Assembly: GCA_016839805.1 (NCBI GenBank)
Contig: JAEOTO010000032.1
Location: forward strand, 202,564 to 266,563
Length of the DNA: 64,000 bases
Reading direction: 5' to 3'
DNA from: Candidatus Hermodarchaeota archaeon
GTDB lineage: Archaea; Asgardarchaeota; Hermodarchaeia; Hermodarchaeales; Hermodarchaeaceae
Shown here: in pieces, positions 3,385-62,354 of the stretch
Layout of the letters: each line of letters starts with the position of its first letter
How positions within the stretch are numbered: the first letter of the stretch is position 1
Notes under the pieces: model-generated
Told to the model about the DNA's origin: nothing
What the model saw: the letters and a program-made list of their open reading frames with translations, nothing else
Database searches by the model: none
Made by a program: the position numbers and the translations under genes

Positions 3385-4946
3385 GTGAAATTCAGAGTTT
3401 TCACATTAAGGGTTTGAAGATTGACAAGTGGAATGATTCCGGGTGTTGGTTCGATTCCGATAAGCTTTTGATAATTAGTCTGACTCTGAAAGGTACCGGA
3501 ATTAATGAGAAGGGTTTTCCGGTAACTTCCTACGCTGGTAACATGAACATGTCCGCAATGGAGTATATCAGGTACCTCATCGATAACTAGCCAATCACGG
3601 GGCTCGGGTGCTAATGTAGTCCCAATTCGGTCGTCTTTCTTTTTTCCGTAAATTGGGGCAAGGTGTCGACCACGAAGCATCTCTCGCATTGCAACGAACC
3701 TTGCCTCCATTTCGGGTTTAGAAAGAGCGGCCATGATATCTACTAAACTGTCACCATGATAGATGAGGACATTGACTCCATGAAGACTCACTTGCGAAGG
3801 GCATCCTAGCGAAGTTACTTCAGTTCCTGAATCGTTGAGTACACTTAGAAACTTCTCATCGATTGCAGGTCGAGGTAAAGCTAACCGAACTCCATCATGG
3901 TTACCAGGCGCTATTAAGACTTGAATGTGATTAGGGATTTCTTGAAGAAGACGATTCAGTCCCTTGAATTGACTATCAAGGTCATGAATGGTAATTTCAG
4001 CAAGTTGGTTCGGGTAAATTCCAATTCCATCAACAAGGTCGCCATTTATTATGATATATTTCACGTTACCCGCTAGCTCAATATGTTCCTTACTACCTTC
4101 CTTTCCCTGCAGCCAATCAAGAACTCTTTGGAATATTTTATCCAGAAAATGCTGGCTTCCAAAATGTATATCGGAAATCAGTAACGCGCTAATGTCCTCT
4201 TTAGCACGATTATTACGGCGATTAGATGGGATGTCGGGTAGAAACAAATCCTTTGCAATGAGCATTTCAGAGCTGATGATCGCACCTTCTATGCAAAGCA
4301 CTTGGTCGAGTAAAACTAATTGTACTTTGGAAAAGAGATTCGGGTCCCGATTCTGCACTATGACAGTGACTCGTCCTGTTAGGTCGTCCAATTCTATAGC
4401 AATATTCCCACTCTTTGTCATAGTCTTTTTCGTGACTTGACCAACAATTTTGATTGTTCTATCTTTATCATTCGTTGTGTTCTTCTTTGATTTCATTGCA
4501 TCTTGGATGTCAATTATTCCCTTTCCATCTACTCGTTGGCTTAAGATGTCACGTAATCGGTAATATCGATCCTGAAAATTTGAAAGAAAGTCATCAATAG
4601 TGCCCTTGCCACGTAATTCGGGTGTAGGATCTTTGAGAATCTTGATTTCCGATTTTATGCCTTCTGCCGGCTGTCTTTTTTTTGTTGGCTGTGTTATTGG
4701 TTTCGTTGGTTTAGCGTCTTTTTCTTTGGTTATCTCAGGCGGTTCAATCCGAGGTAATTGAAAATGTGTGGGTTTGAGAACAGGAGTTTCTAAAGGGTGA
4801 ATTTTGTTTGTTGATAGAAAGGTATCCACAATCTGGTTTGGATTTGGTTCTTTTTGCAACATATCTAAGGTTTCTGGGCTAATTTGGAATCCGGCTTTGA
4901 TTAATTTCGCAACAGCTGTTTGTACGTTGGTTTCTTCTGTTGACAC
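3375..4946 (-). CDS. dp1: DNA polymerase II (PolD) small subunit DP1
   Basis: 523 aa. Calcineurin-like phosphoesterase motifs LISDIHFGS, INGDLVDG, GNHD, GHVH follow an OB-fold-like middle region. Confidence 0.9.
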   Translation of the reverse strand: MSTEETNVQTAVAKLIKAGFQISPETLDMLQKEPNPNQIVDTFLSTNKIHPLETPVLKPTHFQLPRIEPPEITKEKDAKPTKPITQPTKKRQPAEGIKSEIKILKDPTPELRGKGTIDDFLSNFQDRYYRLRDILSQRVDGKGIIDIQDAMKSKKNTTNDKDRTIKIVGQVTKKTMTKSGNIAIELDDLTGRVTVIVQNRDPNLFSKVQLVLLDQVLCIEGAIISSEMLIAKDLFLPDIPSNRRNNRAKEDISALLISDIHFGSQHFLDKIFQRVLDWLQGKEGSKEHIELAGNVKYIIINGDLVDGIGIYPNQLAEITIHDLDSQFKGLNRLLQEIPNHIQVLIAPGNHDGVRLALPRPAIDEKFLSVLNDSGTEVTSLGCPSQVSLHGVNVLIYHGDSLVDIMAALSKPEMEARFVAMREMLRGRHLAPIYGKKKDDRIGTTLAPEPRDWLVIDEVPDILHCGHVHVTSVGSYRKTLLINSGTFQSQTNYQKLIGIEPTPGIIPLVNLQTLNVKTLNFTQS

Positions 4947-20212: not shown

Positions 20213-20992
20213 ATGGAGCTCTATGGACTTTCAACACCAATTATACAACCAGGTGATAATTTAGTTCGGATTGTCTTAACGGCTATGGACCAACAGGGAT
20301 TAGTACCGAACACACATGATATCTTCGTAATAGCCGAAACGGTAGTTGCCACAAGCCAAAATCGAATTCGCGAATTAACAAAAGTAACAGTTACCCCACA
20401 TGCTCTGGAACTTTCAGAGCAATATGGGCTAGATGCATCCCTTGCCCAACTAATTCTAGACGAGGCTGATGAAATACTTGGTGGAGTCCCCCATGTGCTA
20501 TTAACAATTAAAGATAACACCTTAATGGCAAATGCTGGAATCGATCGCTCAAATGCACCACCAGGTCATGTCGTCCTTCTACCCATTCAACCTACTGATG
20601 AAGCCTGGCGAATAAAAACCGAATTAGAAAACCAAACCGGTCACGAGCTAGGAATAATTATTGCTGACAGCCGAACTCAACCACTCAGACTAGGAACGGT
20701 TGGGCTAGCTGTGGCAATCGCTGGGATTGAACCAGTCAAAGATTTTCGAGGGCATCCCGATTTGTATGGCACACCACTACGAATAACTCGCTCAGCAATA
20801 GCTGACAATCTTGCCTCGGCGGCTCAACTATTATTCGGTGAAGCCAATGAACAAGTACCCCTTGTGTTAATTCGAGGAGCACCCGTAACTTTTACAAAAA
20901 AACGGATACAACCAGAATCAATGACCATCGATCGACAAGATTGCTTGTACATGACGATATTCAAAGATTATAGTGATTCAATTAGAATCTGA
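20213..20992 (+). CDS. cofE: CofE-family gamma-glutamyl ligase (F420-0:L-glutamate ligase-like)
   Basis: 259 aa. ANAGIDRSNAP and IIADSRTQPLRLGTVGLAIA are CofE-family signatures. Starts 4 nt after the folP stop. Confidence 0.75.
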   Translation: MELYGLSTPIIQPGDNLVRIVLTAMDQQGLVPNTHDIFVIAETVVATSQNRIRELTKVTVTPHALELSEQYGLDASLAQLILDEADEILGGVPHVLLTIKDNTLMANAGIDRSNAPPGHVVLLPIQPTDEAWRIKTELENQTGHELGIIIADSRTQPLRLGTVGLAVAIAGIEPVKDFRGHPDLYGTPLRITRSAIADNLASAAQLLFGEANEQVPLVLIRGAPVTFTKKRIQPESMTIDRQDCLYMTIFKDYSDSIRI

Positions 20993-21013
20993 GCATTTGA
21001 AAAGGCGGAGAAC

Positions 21014-21046
21014 GGCTCAGTACTCAAGATCCTTATCATCCCTAAT
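21014..21046 (+). repeat. Left arm of an imperfect inverted repeat (core GTACTCAAGATCCTTA, 21020-21035)
   Basis: The core matches the reverse complement of 23149-23163 (GTACTCA-GATCCTTA) at 15 of 16 positions (one extra A). Weaker similarity extends to about 32 nt. Confidence 0.5.
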
Positions 21047-21139
21047 AGCACGCTACAGGTCGTAAGGGTCAGGTCTTCACAGCCAATCTCCAATAAGAAT
21101 CATATTTTCCTTCCTTTTATGCATTCGCAAAAGAAAATA

Positions 21140-21244
21140 TGGTGCGGCTTCCGGGATTTTCGGTGACTTTACAAAGCAGTCAAGCATTCGAACCCGGGTC
21201 TCAGGCGTGGGAGGCCTGGGTCATAACCACTAGACAAAAGCCGC
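21140..21244 (-). tRNA. tRNA-Gly(CCC) with a ~30-nt intron in the T loop; CCA encoded
   Basis: GCGGCTT-TT-GTC-TAGTGGTTAT-GAC-C-CAGGC-CTCCCAC-GCCTG-AGAC-CCGGG-TTCGAA[TGCTTGACTGCTTTGTAAAGTCACCGAAAA]T-CCCGG-AAGCCGC-A-CCA. Confidence 0.8.
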
Positions 21245-21378
21245 ATGGTTCTAATGTGAAGAAGTACCAAGTAAACCTAAAATCATTTTGGTAGATTAAT
21301 CCTTAGATAACCTATTTTACACCTAAAATGGAAAAAAATCTATGAATAGTGTCACGTCCTCACAAGAAGGAATCTATC

Positions 21379-21591
21379 ATGTCTTCCAAAGTTGAAGAGA
21401 TTGCTATCATCGCCATCATCATTGGTATTGTTTTGATTATCGCAGTTACTCTAGCTTGGGTCTTTTTACCTCCACCTACCAATTACACCATAGGAGGAGG
21501 GATTTTTGTGGCAGGTGTAATAGTGTTAATTGGTGGGGTTGTAATAGTTACAACGGCCAGGACCTGTAGAACGAAAGACCTTATAGAATAA
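21379..21591 (+). CDS. Possible small membrane protein (two predicted TM helices)
   Basis: The ORF track gives 21349 (GTG); the first ATG is 21379. Hydrophobic runs IAIIAIIIGIVLIIAVTLAWVFL and IFVAGVIVLIGGVVIV. No homology recognised. Confidence 0.3.
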   Translation: MSSKVEEIAIIAIIIGIVLIIAVTLAWVFLPPPTNYTIGGGIFVAGVIVLIGGVVIVTTARTCRTKDLIE

Positions 21592-21792
21592 TGTGGAACG
21601 AAGCTTGGACAAGTGGCACAAGTTCTTAACAAATTCGTTCCTGAAGTCACGCTTCTCAAATCCGTCAAGAGCCACCTCTATGCAAATGCAATTATTGTTG
21701 TTCATAGATGGAAAATTTTCCGTGGTGTTTTTTGTACTGATTGAAGAGATAATTGACGTAGGTCATCTGTTATTTTGGAGTATAGTTAAAGA

Positions 21793-23151
21793 ATGCAGAT
21801 TACGGTGTGCGGTAGAATATTTCCTTCAAAAGAAGAAGCTGGAAAACTGGATCTCCTAATGAAACACCAATCAACTTGTATGCGATCAGCTTACAAACGT
21901 ATTTGTGAAGGAAAAACCAAATCTGAAATAGACCGATTTCTGAAAAATTTGTATCCTGAATTGAACTCCCGTTATCGTAGAGATGGCTATTTCAGAGCGC
22001 TGGTCAACTATGAAGTAGCAGTGAAATTAGAAAAAATCGGTCTACTTAATTCTATTGAGAAGGTAATATTCGGTGGTCGAAAAAACTTCCAGCGAAGAGA
22101 GCAAGGAAAACTTACATCTGAGGAATGGAAACGGCTAAGGAATAATCAACTTTTTTCAAGGGGCGACAAATCCAAAAAAGGGAATCTTAACCTGCGATTT
22201 TTAGAATTAAATGGGCAATTGTTTCTTCGTGTGAATACAGGTAATCGTACCTGGGTTAACATACCCGCTTACCTCCCCAAACATGTAGAAGAAATCGTCA
22301 ACAGTGTAGTACCTTACGGAGTAAGGATCATAAGGAAAAATGCTTCGTATGAATTACGCGTTAACCGAAGACAAGATTTCGATAATAAATTTAATTTTGA
22401 ATTAGGGGCGGTGGGTGTTGATTTCAATCATAATACGGTTGATTTAGCAGTTACCAATAAACAAGGACAACTGAAGAAGCAACGAACAATAAATTGCCAA
22501 TCATTAACTTGTGCTCGTAAAGGAAAACGGGATTGGCTAATTGGGAACCTGGTCAAACATATTGTCTATTATGCCAAGTATTGGAAACGGGGACTAGTTA
22601 TTGAGAATCTGCATAAAGTGACTCAAGGTCAATCAAATCACCATGTGTTCACCTATCGAAAATTCTCTGAAGCTATTAAACGACGTGCCAAAAAAGAAGG
22701 TGTACAGATTCGAATAATAAATCCTGCATATACCTCTATTATAGGACGATGGAAATACGCCCCCTATTATCATCTCACGGTCCATCAATCCGCCGCTTTA
22801 GTAATTGCGCGGCGGGGACAGGGCTTTTCCGAACATCTCCGAAAGCTCAAGTCTTTAGTCCTCGAACCAATGGAAGGAGGAGAGGCTAGAGAGCATTCAC
22901 CCCGTCGTCGGGTACATGCATGGCGTTTTTGGAAAAAGTTGGGAAGCCTACCCTCCCATAACGGGATGAACACCCGGCACTCCAACCAACCCTGTAAGAT
23001 CAATAGGATGGAAAGTTGGAGAACAAGGAGTTCACACGAAAATAATCTGGATACAGACGACATATCCAGAGGGAAGATCGTCATCCCTGGTAGCGGTCCA
23101 TCACAAAGTGATGTGAATAGGATCCTACATTCCTCAGAAATAGAATCGTAA
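21793..23151 (+). CDS. tnpB: TnpB-like (IS200/IS605 OrfB-type, RuvC-fold) protein, divergent
   Basis: 452 aa. N-terminus RIFPSKEEAGKLDLLMKHQSTCMRSAYKRI is TnpB-like. RuvC-like motifs GAVGVDFNHNTVDLAV and GLVIENL, then INPAYTSIIGRWKY...VHQSAALVIARRG. No CxxC Zn-ribbon seen. Long low-complexity C-terminal tail. Confidence 0.7.
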   Translation: MQITVCGRIFPSKEEAGKLDLLMKHQSTCMRSAYKRICEGKTKSEIDRFLKNLYPELNSRYRRDGYFRALVNYEVAVKLEKIGLLNSIEKVIFGGRKNFQRREQGKLTSEEWKRLRNNQLFSRGDKSKKGNLNLRFLELNGQLFLRVNTGNRTWVNIPAYLPKHVEEIVNSVVPYGVRIIRKNASYELRVNRRQDFDNKFNFELGAVGVDFNHNTVDLAVTNKQGQLKKQRTINCQSLTCARKGKRDWLIGNLVKHIVYYAKYWKRGLVIENLHKVTQGQSNHHVFTYRKFSEAIKRRAKKEGVQIRIINPAYTSIIGRWKYAPYYHLTVHQSAALVIARRGQGFSEHLRKLKSLVLEPMEGGEAREHSPRRRVHAWRFWKKLGSLPSHNGMNTRHSNQPCKINRMESWRTRSSHENNLDTDDISRGKIVIPGSGPSQSDVNRILHSSEIES

Positions 23152-23169
23152 GGATCTGAGTACCAGGCC
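23138..23169 (-). repeat. Right arm of the imperfect inverted repeat (core TAAGGATCTGAGTAC, 23149-23163)
   Basis: See the left arm. The core contains the tnpB-like stop codon (23149-23151). The outer part overlaps the tRNA-Thr-like anticodon loop. Confidence 0.5.
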
Positions 23170-23197
23170 TAAATCCTGACCACTAGACCACGGTCGC
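23160..23197 (-). pseudogene. Orphan 5' half of a tRNA-Thr(GGT)-like gene (positions 1-38 only)
   Basis: Minus strand: GCGACCG-TG-GTCT-AGTGGTCA-GGAT-T-TAGGC-CTGGTAC. tRNA likeness ends at 37/38. No matching GCCTA, T arm or CGGTCGC-N-CCA found in the window. Confidence 0.6.
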
Positions 23198-23267
23198 GAT
23201 AAATTGTGTGAAACTGGAAGAAAGACCCTATAATAATTTCCGATACTAAGTTCTCTATGGTAAGAAG

Positions 23268-24701
23268 TCAGTTGTCTTCTGTTGCAGGTGGAGAATACCG
23301 GTATTGCTGTTGGGTTTTTGCCTTTTCAATAGTTTCAGGGTCAATCCGTTTGAGTTCACGTTCAGGAAATGTTGAAAGCATTTCCCAACCCAAATCAAGG
23401 GTTTGTTCAATAGTGCGTTCTTCGAATTCACCCTGATTTAGGAATTGTGTTTCAAACATTTCTATGAAGTTCAAATACACCCGATCCCGGTCTGAGAGGG
23501 CCCCTTCACCTACAACTGCCACAAGGTCTCGGAGGTCTGAACCTTCGCTAGCAGCATAGTATAATTGAGCTTGAACCTCATTATGATCTGCACGAGTATG
23601 CCCTTCCCCAATTCCTTCCTTCATTAATCGACTAAGACTCGGTGCAGGGTCAATTGGAGGGTAGATTCCTTTATTGTGAAGGGAACGACTTGTAATAAGC
23701 TGTCCTTCAGTGATATAACCGGTGAGATCAGCTACTGGATGCGTAATATCGTCACCGGGCATTGTTAGAATGGGCATTTGTGTGATAGTACCTTTTCGTC
23801 CAATGATACGGCCTGCTCGTTCGTAGATAGATGAAAGGTCTGTATAGAGATATCCTGGATACCCTCTACGACCAGGTACCTCCTCTCGGGCCGCTGATAT
23901 CTCACGTAGGGCGTTTGCATAGTTGAGCATGTCTGTTAGTATAACGAGAACATGCATACCCTGTTCAAAGGCTAGATACTCAGCAATTGTGAGGGCAGTT
24001 CGTGGTGTAATAATTCGTTCAATCGGAGGATCATCTGCAAGATTTAACACAAGCACACTTGTGGCTAACGCGCCCGTCTCTTCTAAAGTCTTCATGTAAA
24101 ATTGCGCAGTTTCAGCTGTAATTCCGATTGCGCAAAGTATTACGGCAAACTGTTCCTCTTTACCCGGAATTTTTGCCTGGCGTGTGATTTGGGCTGCAAC
24201 CCGATCATGTGGCAAACCGGAACCACTGAAAATTGGGAGTTTCTGACCACGAACGAGCGTGTTAAGTCCATCAATGACGCTGAGGCCTGTTTGAATAAAT
24301 TCTCGTGGATATTGTCTTGCATCGGGGTTCATTGGTGCTCCATTGAGATCCAATTCGTCATCAGGGACAATCGGTGGTCCCTTGTCAATAGGGATTCCAG
24401 AGCCTGTGAGAACTCGTCCGAGTAGATCAATGGTAACCGAAGTTCTCATCGTTTCACCAGTAAGACGTACTCGAGTTGCCTTCGTGTCAAGTCCACGAGT
24501 TCCTTCAAAAACTTGAACTATTGCACGCCCTCTCATAGCCTCTAATACAGTACCTCGACGCAGAGTTCCATCTGGTGCAGTTACTTCGACAAGCTCATTG
24601 TACGCAACATCTCCTACCTTATCCAGAATTAGCAGGGGACCTGAGACAGTGGTCACAGTCTGATACGTCGGCTTCAAGGCAGAGGTTTGTTTGTCAGTCA
24701 T
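23268..24701 (-). CDS. atpB: A/V-type ATP synthase subunit B
   Basis: The ORF track starts at TTG 24716; ATG at 24701 gives [23 protein letters not shown]. Conserved [22 protein letters not shown] and [17 protein letters not shown]. Confidence 0.95.
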
Positions 24702-25906: not shown

Positions 25907-28900
25907 CTAATTCGCTTCAATGGAAATAAATTCGTTGTTAATCTCACTTTCGAGGTCTTGGAAGTATTTCAGCATTACATCAAGATTCTCATGAGGTTGA
26001 ACTTTCATACGTGCAATTTTTCCTACTACGGGGAGTGCTATAATCCGACGGAGTGCAGTTCCCTCATCAATTGCTTGCCGCATACGGTTCCAGAATTCCA
26101 TGATAATCTTTAGCATCCAATAGCTTTTGGTCTCAGGGCAATAGGTATCAATGGGATGGAGTGCTGATTGCATTAGGTAGTCTTCCTTAACCATACGTGC
26201 TGCCTCTAAAATCGCACGTTCACGTTCAGGTAAAGCATCTGGACCGACTAGTTGGACGATTTCACGGAGTTCTTTGTCATGTTGAAGAATTGATAGCGCT
26301 TCTTCAGTAATTTCGGGCCAATCATTTCCCATCTTGCCTTGGTACCATGTTGCTAATTCGTCTTTGTATAATGAATAGCTTTGTAGATAGTTAATAGCTG
26401 GGAAGAATCGCCTTGAAGCCATATCCTTATCAAGTGCCCAAAAGACCTTCGTTATCCTTAATGTTGACTGAGTAACTGGTTCAGAAAAGTCGCCACCTGC
26501 TGGTGAGACGGCTCCTGTGACTGTTACACTCCCTATTCGCGTTTCTGAGCCAAGTGTTTCCACACGGCCTGCGCGTTCATAGAATTCAGCTAATCGGCTT
26601 CCAAGATACGCTGGGTATCCCTCTTCACCTGGCATTTCCTCTAATCGACCAGAGATTTCACGTAGTGCTTCAGCCCAGCGGGACGTGCTATCCGCCATCA
26701 GAGCAACGTCATATCCTTGGTCTCTGAAATACTCTGCTATGGTAATTCCAGTGTATATTGAAGCTTCTCTAGCCGCAACTGGCATATTACTTGTATTAGC
26801 AACAAGAATTGTTCTTTCCATTAGCGATTTTCCACTTTTGGGGTCCTTAAGCTTAGGAAAGTCCTCAAGGACTTCTGTCATTTCATTTCCTCTCTCTCCA
26901 CAGCCAACATAGACAATGATATCAGCATCAGCCCATTTCGCTAATTGATGAAGAGTTACAGTATTATGAAGTGTAACGGGTAGAACACCACCAACGAAAT
27001 TATGAGTTTTTTCCACCGTGATGTCATAAACTGGAACGTTTGTTTCAGTAATTTCTATTTTCTTAATTCGGTCAAAGTAGACTTGCTCGAGGATGTTCAA
27101 AATACTTTGTAGTTGTTCTCTTGTTTCTTGAGAGACTTGGGTATTGTTCGCATCTATTATCTCAAAGATAAGTCGTAATGTGTCGTTAGATGGTGTTTCG
27201 TCTAATCTTGTATAATTATCTAAGCGTAAACCACTCATTTTTCTGAAAACATCGTGACCTTGAGGAGTTTTTCCTTCTGTTTTGAGAGAAAGTAATAGTT
27301 GTTGGTTAACAGGAACGACATCTAAGCCAACGAAGTGTGTAATTTCTTGTGATGCATATTCATATAACCGTTGAATTTTGATGTAGGGATATACTCCATT
27401 ATCCTGCATGCATTTTGAAATACGTTCGGCAAATTTCCCATCAATTTCAATTACATACGAGTCATTCTTCTGTCTAGCCCGGTAAATCAGTCCAAGTCGT
27501 GTTAAGAGGTACCCTAAATCGCTATGAAGTTGATGGCTTGCCGTACTTAGTTGAAGGGAATATTTCGAGAAATGTCCATCACCAGCAATATATCCAGTAA
27601 GAAAGTGAATGAAGTAATCTTCTGGTGCAATTCGAATACATGAAGGAACACGAACGGTGTGGGATTTATCATCTCTTGGAAGATCAAGGGAGATTAGGAA
27701 TTTCTTGAGGCTGGTATTTCGAAGATAGGCATATGGAGTTCTATCAGATGAATCTTGATCGATTTTTGGTTCTAGACCAAACACAATTAAGGATAATTCT
27801 TTGAAACGATACAAAATTTTTGGAGAAGAATTGTATAAGTAAATCCCTTGATATTTTCCTTTGAAATGTCCATCAGCCACAAATAATCCAAGCCATTCTG
27901 AAAGTTCCTTAGTAAGCTTGGTTGGAATGCGAAAGGGTTCTGACCCTCTTTCTGCTTTAACGAGAGCAACAGGTATTCGAGGTTTACCTACGAATTTCAC
28001 TAATTTATCAAGAAATCTGAGCGTGGGTTTATTTTTTCCACTCTTATAACCAATGAGGACATCATAAGAAACTTCTAATTTCTTTGACAGAACTTTTAGT
28101 GTCATCTGTTTTTGGAGACTCTGAATCAACTCTTGCATCATTTGAATAGCTTGTGGGTCGACTACACGCAAAGAGAGATCTATTTCATAAGAGTCAAATT
28201 GGGGGATTTGACCGGGTATGTTTAGTTTTCTTGGTACGACGAGGTGATCACCTACATTTAATTGCTGAGCTTCAACTTCTTCGATTATTTCACCATTAAA
28301 TCGGAAGAGCTTGTGAACTGGTGTAACCTCTACAGTTCGTCCAGAACGAGTAGTAATCTTCACAATCGCAGGAGTTGTTCCTCTGTATATGTGAGTTGCT
28401 TTAGCGGGAATGTATCTTGCTCCATCAAATGATAGGATTCGAAGAGGAGTTTTCAGACTAATAAGTGTCTCATCTTCTGAATCTTGTTCAATAAATTCCC
28501 CTTGTTGTAAGAATTTCTTGTATAAGACTTGAATTGGTGTGGTGTCGCCATTCGAAAGTAAAACAGGAGTATCACCTGTCACACATTTTCCGGTGCCAAA
28601 CCCTCCAGGAATGGCTCCAGTTCCACCTTTTGCAACTGGGAAGAAGGTATCAATGACACGTTGGCCTGTGTATAAGGGTACTTCGGTGCTAATTTTTGTT
28701 TTATAGGGTCGACCAATACGTACGGGCCATCGTTGGGTTAGTTTAATGTCACTTTTACCCGAAGGGGTTTGAATCTGTGCGATGACGTCCTTGATAGTGT
28801 AATCACCGCCATTGACTATCTGCGTTACTTTGCCCTCAATCCCAGGCGGTACAAGGATGCGGTGAAGAAATACGCTCGTTTCTTGTACCGTTCCTATTAC

Positions 28901-29305
28901 ATCACCAGCCGCGACTGTTGCACCCTTTGTGACAATGGGCTTAAATGTCCATGGTTTATCCTCTGGGAGCGGTGGTGCAGTAACTCCTCGTGTAATGAAG
29001 TCTCCGATCTGGTTTTTGATACTGGGGAGTGGTCGTTGAATTCCATCAAAAATAGAGCCAACTAAGCCTGGACCAAGTTCAACGTCAAGAGAAGTTCCAG
29101 TAGCAACAACCGGTTCTCCCGGTTTTAATCCAGATGTTTCTTCATAAACTTGAATATAGGCTCGATCACCTACAACTCGATTGACTTCACCAATTAATTC
29201 CTCTGTCCCAACTTTACAGACCTCAAACATAGTAACTCCAAAAAGTCCATCAGCTTCGATGAGTGGACCCGCAATTCGTTGTATATTTCCTGTTCGTGTA
29301 GACAT
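25907..29305 (-). CDS. atpA: A/V-type ATP synthase catalytic subunit A, interrupted by an intein
   Basis: The ORF track starts at 29338; ATG at 29305 gives [16 protein letters not shown], typical of AtpA. The P-loop GGFGTGK is split from [10 protein letters not shown]...GERGNEM by 541 aa. The C-terminal half has [22 protein letters not shown]. Confidence 0.95.
26963..28585 (-). mobile_element. Intein in AtpA P-loop with LAGLIDADG homing-endonuclease domain
   Basis: Begins [10 protein letters not shown] (Cys1, residue 252 of the track ORF) and ends VTLHN. The +1 residue is Thr, which completes GKT. Block B is TPVHKL. LAGLIDADG-type motifs [10 protein letters not shown] and [11 protein letters not shown]. 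541 aa by hand count. Confidence 0.9.
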
Positions 29306-29392
29306 AATCAACCGCCTTTTTTGAAACTCTGCTAACAAGTGTCACTATCAGCTATACTCAATTGACAAAAAGTTTATGGTAATTATCCAGTT

Positions 29393-62217: not shown

Positions 62218-62354
62218 TGGCGGGCTCGGCGGGACTTGAACCCGCGACCCTCGGGTGTCTTTAGAAGACTGCTAGAAGCTCTTCTCTAAAAGCCCGATGC
62301 TCTGACCTTACCCACGCCGGAAACCCGGTACGTGTCTGGCTAAGCTACGAGCCC
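62218..62354 (-). tRNA. tRNA-Lys(TTT) with two introns (29 nt in D loop, 30 nt at 37/38); CCA encoded
   Basis: GGGCTCG-TA-GCTTAGCCAG[ACACGTACCGGGTTTCCGGCGTGGGTAAG]GTCAGAGC-A-TCGGG-CTTTTA[GAGAAGAGCTTCTAGCAGTCTTCTAAAGAC]A-CCCGA-GGGTC-GCGGG-TTCAAGT-CCCGC-CGAGCCC-G-CCA. Confidence 0.85.

Follow-up and report, generated by a model that had tools for sequence, protein, structure and literature searches.

In TnpB systems, a transcript is processed to a scaffold with a guide at its 3' end, and the protein finds the DNA complementary to this guide (PMC13565253). Elements of the IS607 family end in GG and insert at GG by a 2-bp exchange without duplication (PMC6188088; PMC13565253), and the TnpB-like nuclease-dead repressors (TldR) are exapted TnpB proteins with fixed guides (PMC10705468). 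Mobile elements have also been proposed as agents that split tRNA genes (PMC3218864). Here we analyzed a stretch of 64,000 nucleotides (nt; 64 kb, referred to below as the window) of contig JAEOTO010000032.1 from a Candidatus Hermodarchaeota archaeon (assembly GCA_016839805.1, positions 202,564 to 266,563), in which a preliminary description had reported the orphan 5' half of a tRNA-Thr(GGU), ending at positions 37/38 and lying antisense to the structured 3' end of a tnpB-like gene. Comparison with homologous loci shows that this "orphan tRNA half" is a composite, consisting of ~30 nt of a broken tRNA gene and the conserved end of a TnpB-type guide-RNA scaffold. With a confidence slightly better than even, we favor the reading that the locus encodes an immobilized ribonucleoprotein of the TnpB type, whose fixed guide is antisense to a tRNA gene. 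All coordinates are those of the window, and its main features are collected in Table 1.

The supposed tRNA half ends in the scaffold of a TnpB-type RNA

Homologues of the TnpB-like protein were traced to contigs, and 10 homologous loci (designated here by L numbers) were placed in the scaffold alignment A2; a scan of the genome collection with the same protein returned two loci only. A conserved DNA stretch of ~200 nt runs across the 3' end of the open reading frame (ORF) in all homologous loci, irrespective of the position of the stop codon, which in the window lies 9 nt from 23160, as had been described. RNAalifold analysis of alignment A2 yielded 52 pairs in seven helices, of which 34 pairs showed compensatory double changes. 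In the consensus structure 95.1% of cells were paired, and none of 500 shuffles reached any of the five measures used. When the partners were slid by 1-3 columns, the number of covarying pairs dropped from 34 to 10 or fewer. Since G.U cells outnumbered A.C cells (46 versus 12), the folded strand is the plus strand, the sense of the gene. The locus thus shows the RNA arrangement of TnpB systems, in which a structured RNA runs over the end of the gene as far as the boundary of the element and the adjoining flank takes the place of a guide.

Most of the hairpins pointed out earlier proved to belong to this structure. The pairings CTGGATA/TATCCAG (23047-23069) and CATCAC/GTGATG (23099-23113) are supported by covariation in the 10 homologues. 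The hairpin CTCAGA/TCTGAG is present but confined to the window, and the conserved pairing in its place joins GGATCC… (23120-33) with …GGATCT (23143-57). The pairing of CCTGGTA with TACCAGG, which forms the closing helix H5, is real and covaries, with the compensatory variants CCTAGTA/TACTAGG in L010, L024 and L026, CCAGGTA/TACCTGG in L006 and CTTGGTA/TACCAAG in L020; its 3' partner is the terminus of the scaffold, not the anticodon loop of a tRNA as had been proposed. Rfam returned no relevant match at E values up to 10 in the region 20500-24000, RAGATH-18 and other omegaRNA motifs included. A covariance model of the scaffold found a single copy in the 64-kb window and, when run on the window plus 15 loci, found the training copies only. 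A scan of viral contigs for the scaffold gave at least 120 matches, and none of the 80 loci screened fitted the covariance model.

The terminus …GTAAGGnTnTGAGTACCWGG is common to the 10 loci. The other copies of the tnpB-like gene and their flanks had been singled out as the comparison to make, and they proved informative: syntenic orthologues share the same flank, and at other sites the same terminus stands next to unrelated sequence. Directly 3' of the shared terminus, the flank reads TGATTCATTG… in L005, TCACGATTAC… in L019, CATTAATTGG… in L006 and TATAAAACGT… in L026, and these four independent sites are unrelated in this part. The element thus ends in GAGTACCWGG in every family member, irrespective of the adjoining sequence, and the supposed tRNA positions 31-38, including the "anticodon", belong to the element. 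It follows that the real tRNA/element junction lies at tRNA positions 30-32, and that neither the loop CTGGTAC as a tRNA-derived sequence, nor the isotype Thr(GGU), nor a break at the intron site 37/38 has a basis. The change of G34 to A34 in L010, L024 and L026 is compensated in the H5 partner.

What stands of the supposed 5' half is its first part, positions 1-30(32). Minus-strand nucleotides 23197-23160 can be drawn as an acceptor strand, D arm, anticodon-stem strand and loop, and the Rfam tRNA model gave a 3'-truncated match to positions 1-37 (15.1 bits, E 0.46 in a 71-nt search), which is weak alone. Positions 1-32 of the fragment are identical at 30 of 32 positions to exon 1 of an intron-bearing tRNA gene present in L012, L013 and L015, which is better evidence of a tRNA origin than the Rfam match. 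The flank proper comprises tRNA positions 1-30 only; the CC that follows is ambiguous, since on the opposite strand it is also the terminal GG of the element. With this CC shared, the next six element bases would need only U33 and a purine at position 37 to mimic an anticodon loop, a chance that we estimate at about 1 in 8.

Nine of the 10 termini end in …GG, and the tenth, in L020, ends in …AG and is followed by a flank G. The window junction reads …CCAGG/CCTAAATCC… (the slash marks the boundary) and has the appearance of an insertion of the IS607 type into the CC at tRNA positions 31-32. tRNA sequence was found in two of six independent right-end flanks, those of the window and of L020. A metagenome scan with tRNA positions 10-30 yielded no additional copies of the element and recovered intron-bearing tRNA genes with a near-identical exon 1. 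The tRNA gene of L012 (2886-3020), L013 and L015 is interrupted by insertions at two places, the anticodon region and the T-loop, and no single-intron solution yields a U33 loop, hence there is no anticodon call. In L020 (5277-5395; 56% protein identity) the terminus reads …TGAGTACCAAG and the very next base is the +1 of an intact, sense tRNA-Gly(UCC), whose gene encodes the CCA and has an intron in the T-loop; RNase P acting on a read-through transcript would cut precisely at the scaffold/guide junction of this locus.

Protein fold, synteny and selection at the locus

Only one NCBI model scored above its threshold for the ORF, TIGR01766 'TnpB-related' (39.5 bits versus a cut-off of 32); guided_TnpB (NF040570) gave 25.8 bits, well under its cut-off of 100, and the precomputed Pfam family of the protein is PF27229 SSO2105_N. 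A literature search on SSO2105 found nothing. An AlphaFold2 (AF2) model built from a 104-sequence alignment had a predicted local distance difference test (pLDDT) score of 80, with a folded core of ~aa 1-355 and a tail (aa 357-452) that is predicted to be disordered and overlaps the RNA scaffold. The top Foldseek matches of this model were AsCas12f 8j3r (E 5.5e-10, TMq 0.47), Cas12f, Fanzor2, Cas12k and the TnpB structures 8iaz and 8exa, and a profile search against PDB sequences matched Cas12f/TnpB at E 5.6e-8. The protein is thus predicted to adopt a WED-REC-RuvC fold like that of the solved TnpB and Cas12f structures. The RuvC residues D210 and E271 are invariant among the 104 sequences, and at the third RuvC position, 331, the window protein has H, as do 73 of the 104 sequences, with D in 30 and Q in 1. 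The zinc-finger (TNB) insertion is absent from RuvC, where only ~15 residues and no CxxC lie between PAYTS and the third site; the Pfam model Cas12f1-like_TNB reached 17.1 bits (cut-off 26.3) over model positions 1-28 only.

Orthologues with available sequence (L010, 83% protein identity; L001-L003, 80%; L004, 69%; L024/L025, 60%) all lie between cofE/tRNA-Gly(CCC) and atpB, and the gene map of a further orthologue, P0004 (74%), agrees with the same position (map only, no DNA). The L010 contig belongs to a metagenome-assembled genome labelled Promethearchaeota. Among the orthologues the ratio of nonsynonymous to synonymous substitution rates (dN/dS) was 0.08-0.19, with dS ~0.5 between the window and both L010 and L001 and >2 to L004 and L024, and the identity of the window to L004 and L024 at four-fold sites was 0.33-0.39. 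Since the element is syntenic in orthologues with dS >2, it does not appear to be a recent or mobile insertion but to have been vertically kept under purifying selection. A mobile element would be expected in several copies at unrelated sites, whereas within the 64 kb we found one copy, and the orthologues share their neighbors.

Compared with IS607 elements that carry TnpB and a 3' omegaRNA (e.g., of the RAGATH-18 type), the locus has the same TnpB/Cas12f fold, a 3'-overlapping structured RNA that ends at the boundary, a GG terminus and a flank in the guide position. In its close relatives L006-L009 a Resolvase (serine recombinase) gene directly precedes the family gene and the two overlap, which is the IS607 arrangement. 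In contrast to IS607 elements, the window protein has no zinc finger and carries H in place of the third RuvC aspartate, the scaffold has no Rfam match, neither serine recombinase TnpA nor another transposase is present in the 64-kb window, and the single copy is syntenic across species. The locus resembles TldR (PMC10705468) in that the gene is immobile, syntenic and under purifying selection, with both the scaffold and the guide-position sequence conserved. It differs from TldR in being archaeal, in its intact D210 and E271, in an H331 that is family-wide and found also in the transposase-linked (Resolvase-linked) relatives, and in a guide derived from a tRNA; no promoter-proximal target came to light in the window or the orthologous loci.

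Conservation of the flank was examined in steps from the scaffold end. Bases 1-10 are identical to the window in all four orthologues compared (10/10 in L010, L001, L004 and L024). Over bases 11-20 the identity is 10/10 in L010, 8/10 in L001, 9/10 in L004 and 7/10 in L024, and over bases 21-30 it is 9/10, 8/10, 9/10 and 1/10, respectively. Beyond base 30 it falls to 57% in L010 and L001, 35-40% in L004 and 36-41% in L024. The flanks of the window and L004 are thus alike at 28 of 30 positions despite saturated neutral sites. In L024 just CCTAAATCCTACCGCTA is retained, the 17 nt next to the scaffold, so that tRNA positions 1-13 are lost and 14-30 kept; the same 17-nt flank was seen again in a second assembly, L025. 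A length of 17 nt is typical of TnpB guides. Since L024 has lost tRNA positions 1-13, the constraint on its flank cannot be of the tRNA type. The flank, 23168-23197, is unpaired in the consensus structure. A constraint that starts from the scaffold end, weakens with distance and has guide length in L024 is what a selected guide should look like, and the proximal 17-30 nt are under purifying selection. Upstream of the tRNA fragment, the motif GACC(C)TATAAT(R)(R)TTTC is common to the window, L010 and L001, partly present in L004 and not found at that place in L024. Archaeal tRNA promoters have a spacing of 30-49 nt (PMC3218864), which the 31 nt at the window fits, and the motif may be a retained tRNA promoter.

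Table 1. Features of the TnpB-like locus, with positions in the window.
Feature	Position	Strand	Basis or detail
TnpB-related ORF, 452 aa	21793..23151	+	TIGR01766, PF27229, AF2 model, Foldseek
omegaRNA-like scaffold, ~200 nt, seven helices, ending …TGAGTACCAGG	22968..23167	+	covariation in 10 loci
5' arm of closing helix H5 (CCTGGTA)	23086..23092	+	pairs with 23161-23167; 100% paired in 10 sequences
3' arm of H5 (TACCAGG), the GG terminus of the element; supposed anticodon loop on the other strand	23161..23167	+	same terminus beside unrelated flanks
Reported "tRNA 5' half": tRNA positions 1-30(32) plus element terminus	23160..23197	-	reads GCGACCGTGGTCTAGTGGTCAGGATTTAGGCCTGGTAC
Flank at guide position, reverse complement of tRNA positions 30 to 1; core 23168-23184/87 most conserved	23168..23197	+	orthologue comparison
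TATA box/transcription factor B recognition element (TATA/BRE)-like motif (GGAAATTATTATA), 31 nt from tRNA +1; candidate retained tRNA promoter	23229..23243	-	read from sequence
Conserved region upstream of ORF: 5' UTR (untranslated region), possibly degenerate left end (TTGAAGAG… at 21741)	21720..21792	+	alignable among window, L001, L010, partly L024

A proposed fixed guide weighed against other explanations

The history that we propose begins in an ancestor of these Asgard (Promethearchaeota-related) archaea, where an IS607-type element of the TnpB family would have inserted into a tRNA gene, at a GG that corresponds to tRNA positions 31-32 read on the opposite strand. The 3' part of the tRNA and the transposase would have been lost afterwards, leaving the TnpB-like gene, a 3'-overlapping scaffold RNA of ~200 nt and the adjoining tRNA-derived bases, and this remainder would have been inherited vertically under purifying selection. 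By analogy with described TnpB systems, we infer that a plus-strand transcript is made and processed to a scaffold that extends to 23167 and, 3' of it, a guide that runs from 23168 to ~23187 or beyond. The guide would be antisense to the D-arm and anticodon-stem part of the tRNA, and the RNA-bound protein would be directed to DNA, or conceivably RNA, that carries this tRNA sequence, which it would either cleave or only bind. The obvious candidate target would be the parent tRNA gene, of which an intact copy may lie elsewhere in the genome. Insertion of a TnpB element with a tRNA-antisense guide had been the first of three options offered for the locus, and in outline it is borne out by the covarying scaffold, the TnpB/Cas12f fold and the flank at the guide position; its details need correction, since the insertion lies at the GG of positions 31-32 and not at 37/38, the tRNA need not be tRNA-Thr, and the element is neither recent nor mobile.

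Several observations weigh against a fixed, selected guide at this locus. The full 30 nt are kept in the window, L010, L001 and L004, which exceeds the need of a 16-20-nt guide, and the TATA-like motif upstream, which is perhaps conserved as well, is also beyond what a guide needs. A search for a guide target found the self copy only, in the window and in the orthologous loci. The H at the third RuvC site together with the missing zinc finger makes nuclease activity of the protein uncertain. Pairwise alignment of the upstream regions gave a usable boundary for a left end or transposon-associated motif (TAM) for L005/L019 only; the conserved region upstream of the ORF resembles the start of similarity between these two loci (TTAAGCA/TTGAAGCA). 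Finally, the loci are metagenomic contigs throughout these comparisons. A viral target is unsupported, as a scan of viral contigs for the guide sequence gave 10 matches, none of them tRNA-like or att-like.

Part of this evidence would also fit a selfish relic, that is, an immobilized IS607-derived TnpB element beside its insertion scar, which now or formerly did no more than the usual restorative homing and whose flank looks conserved for reasons other than guide use, e.g., because a promoter was retained or because an intact paralogous tRNA gene acted as donor in gene conversion. Such a relic would agree with the GG junction, with the relatives linked to a Resolvase gene and with the retained catalytic D and E, and a conversion tract would explain why the whole 30-nt fragment and the promoter-like motif are kept. 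However, L024 keeps exactly the 17 scaffold-proximal nt at dS >2, which fits a constraint tied to the scaffold and not a conversion tract of tRNA length, and with no transposase, one copy in 64 kb and stable synteny there is nothing left to "home"; we consider this explanation unlikely. A decayed remnant, the third option offered earlier, accounts for the missing 3' half and for the loss of the distal part in L024, but not for the purifying selection on the proximal 17-30 nt. The locus is comparable to the tRNA-gene fragments that integrative elements leave behind in archaeal genomes, in that part of a tRNA gene remains at the border of a mobile element that had entered the gene; unlike them, the window has no duplicated att repeat or reconstituted tRNA, the 5' and not the 3' part of the tRNA is retained, and the two sequences meet at a 2-bp GG core of the kind typical of serine transposases.

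The second option had been a genuine split tRNA. At 37/38 this is not supported, given loop bases that follow a scaffold helix, the loss of the acceptor and D-stem part in L024, and the 3' half missing from the window, where pattern and regex searches (T arm plus CGGTCGC) were negative and ARAGORN and Rfam found no tRNA-Thr in the 64 kb, in line with what had been stated. A 5' piece joined at positions 30-32, transcribed on the minus strand from the retained promoter and trans-spliced to a remote 3' piece, with the antisense of the scaffold end as a pairing trailer, would be closer to the known split tRNA genes of Nanoarchaeum, Caldivirga, Staphylothermus and Aeropyrum, with which the fragment shares an isolated 5' portion, a promoter-like motif upstream (here TATA-like, at 31 nt) and a junction at 30-32 near a known 30/31; the tRNA-Lys(CUU) of N. 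equitans and S. marinus joins at 30/31 (PMC3218864). Retention of the full 30 nt in the window, L010, L001 and L004, although neutral sites are saturated, would fit, and the acceptor-stem differences among orthologues (G1A in L004, G3A in L010, C6G7 to GA in L001) could be offset in a distant 3' piece. Against this, there is neither a 3' piece nor a complementary leader that would form a bulge-helix-bulge in the window, nor a 3' piece beside the left end, the apparent loop is a helix of another RNA, and L024 is without positions 1-13 yet has kept 14-30. IS607-type elements have no terminal inverted repeats (PMC6188088), so that the insertion supplies no pairing for trans-splicing. A literature search on split tRNAs with TnpB found nothing. 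We know of no split tRNA reported in Asgard archaea, which also counts against this alternative, and we regard it as highly improbable.

A retained tRNA promoter could serve an antisense RNA instead, driving a minus-strand transcript across the guide and scaffold that regulates the omegaRNA or the mRNA of the TnpB-like gene, with the fragment conserved as the 5' end of that transcript. Such an RNA would account for the promoter-like motif conserved at tRNA-promoter distance and for the conservation beyond guide length, and folding of the minus strand over 23040-23200 gave a z-score of -2.55. It is nevertheless improbable in our judgment, as the 46 G.U cells of the scaffold covariation become A.C on the minus strand and the motif is missing at that place in L024. 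Overall, the immobilized TnpB-type ribonucleoprotein with a fixed, tRNA-derived guide remains the reading that we favor, at the confidence given at the outset.

Neighboring observations and implications

Several features were noted in the surroundings of the locus and in related loci. Upstream of the TnpB-like gene, a tRNA-Gly(CCC) gene (21140-21244, minus strand) has an insertion of ~30 nt in the T-loop, a non-canonical intron position; it was missed by ARAGORN and scored 24.8 bits with Rfam (threshold 29 bits), and when the insertion was removed ARAGORN called tRNA-Gly(ccc). This gene is kept upstream of the TnpB-like gene in L001, L010 and L024. Between its promoter region and the TnpB-like gene, a stretch of ~400-450 bp (~21250-21720) includes an 80-aa hydrophobic ORF (21349-21591) and is missing from this place in L001, L010 and L024. 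Downstream, the ORF for A-type ATPase subunit A (25907-29338, minus strand) encodes 1143 aa, versus 591-592 aa in L001 and L004, and contains an intein after the P-loop lysine (…GTGK/CVTGDT … HN/TV…, slashes marking its ends). At 62218-62295 (minus strand), ARAGORN called a tRNA with the anticodon CUA ('tRNA-Pyl'), and Rfam gave none at its gathering score; the acceptor pairing looks imperfect, and the gene may encode a true amber suppressor or else a tRNA that is unusual or carries an intron.

Among the relatives, L006 (3795-6314), like L007-L009, looks like an autonomous form of the element, with a Resolvase gene overlapping the start of the TnpB-like gene. In L006 a tRNA-Ser(GCU) lies ~550 nt upstream, and the ORF stops ~110 nt before the scaffold end, with the scaffold DNA conserved onward. 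G-rich motifs stand just before the beginning of the alignable upstream region in L005 (GGGAGGG, ~4140-4150) and L019 (GAGGAGG, ~185-195), and they resemble the IS607 TnpB TAMs AGGAG and GAGGG quoted in PMC13565253.

These observations have consequences for how such loci are read. tRNA "halves" beside TnpB-type genes can be an insertion scar joined to the terminus of an element RNA, which makes split-tRNA or isotype calls at such places unsafe. The presence of tRNA sequence at two of the six independent insertion sites hints at a link between the element and tRNA genes, and it bears on the proposed splitting of tRNA genes by mobile elements. The covarying scaffold RNA of ~200 nt, missing from Rfam, belongs to a widespread TnpB-related clade (Pfam PF27229, NCBI "TnpB-related"), for which we found no described guide RNA. 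The case is best filed as an immobilized, zinc-finger-less, IS607-related gene of the TnpB family, with an uncatalogued scaffold RNA and a selected, tRNA-derived guide, and the locus is a candidate archaeal case of a guide that is vertically fixed and under selection.

Should the guide be in use, the target would be a tRNA gene, and the known exaptations of TnpB (Cas12, TldR) would then include a case in Asgard archaea, with a target of a new class. We raise more tentatively, as a possibility that we hold to be doubtful, a domestication in the Asgard lineage, by which a zinc-finger-less TnpB-family protein and a scaffold with a guide hard-wired from a broken tRNA gene would recognize, elsewhere in the genome, a tRNA gene or the RNA made from it. 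Such a complex might tune the expression of that tRNA or guard the tRNA gene as an integration site. If this is true, the tRNA-directed complex would be an archaeal counterpart of the bacterial TldR, with a tRNA as its target.

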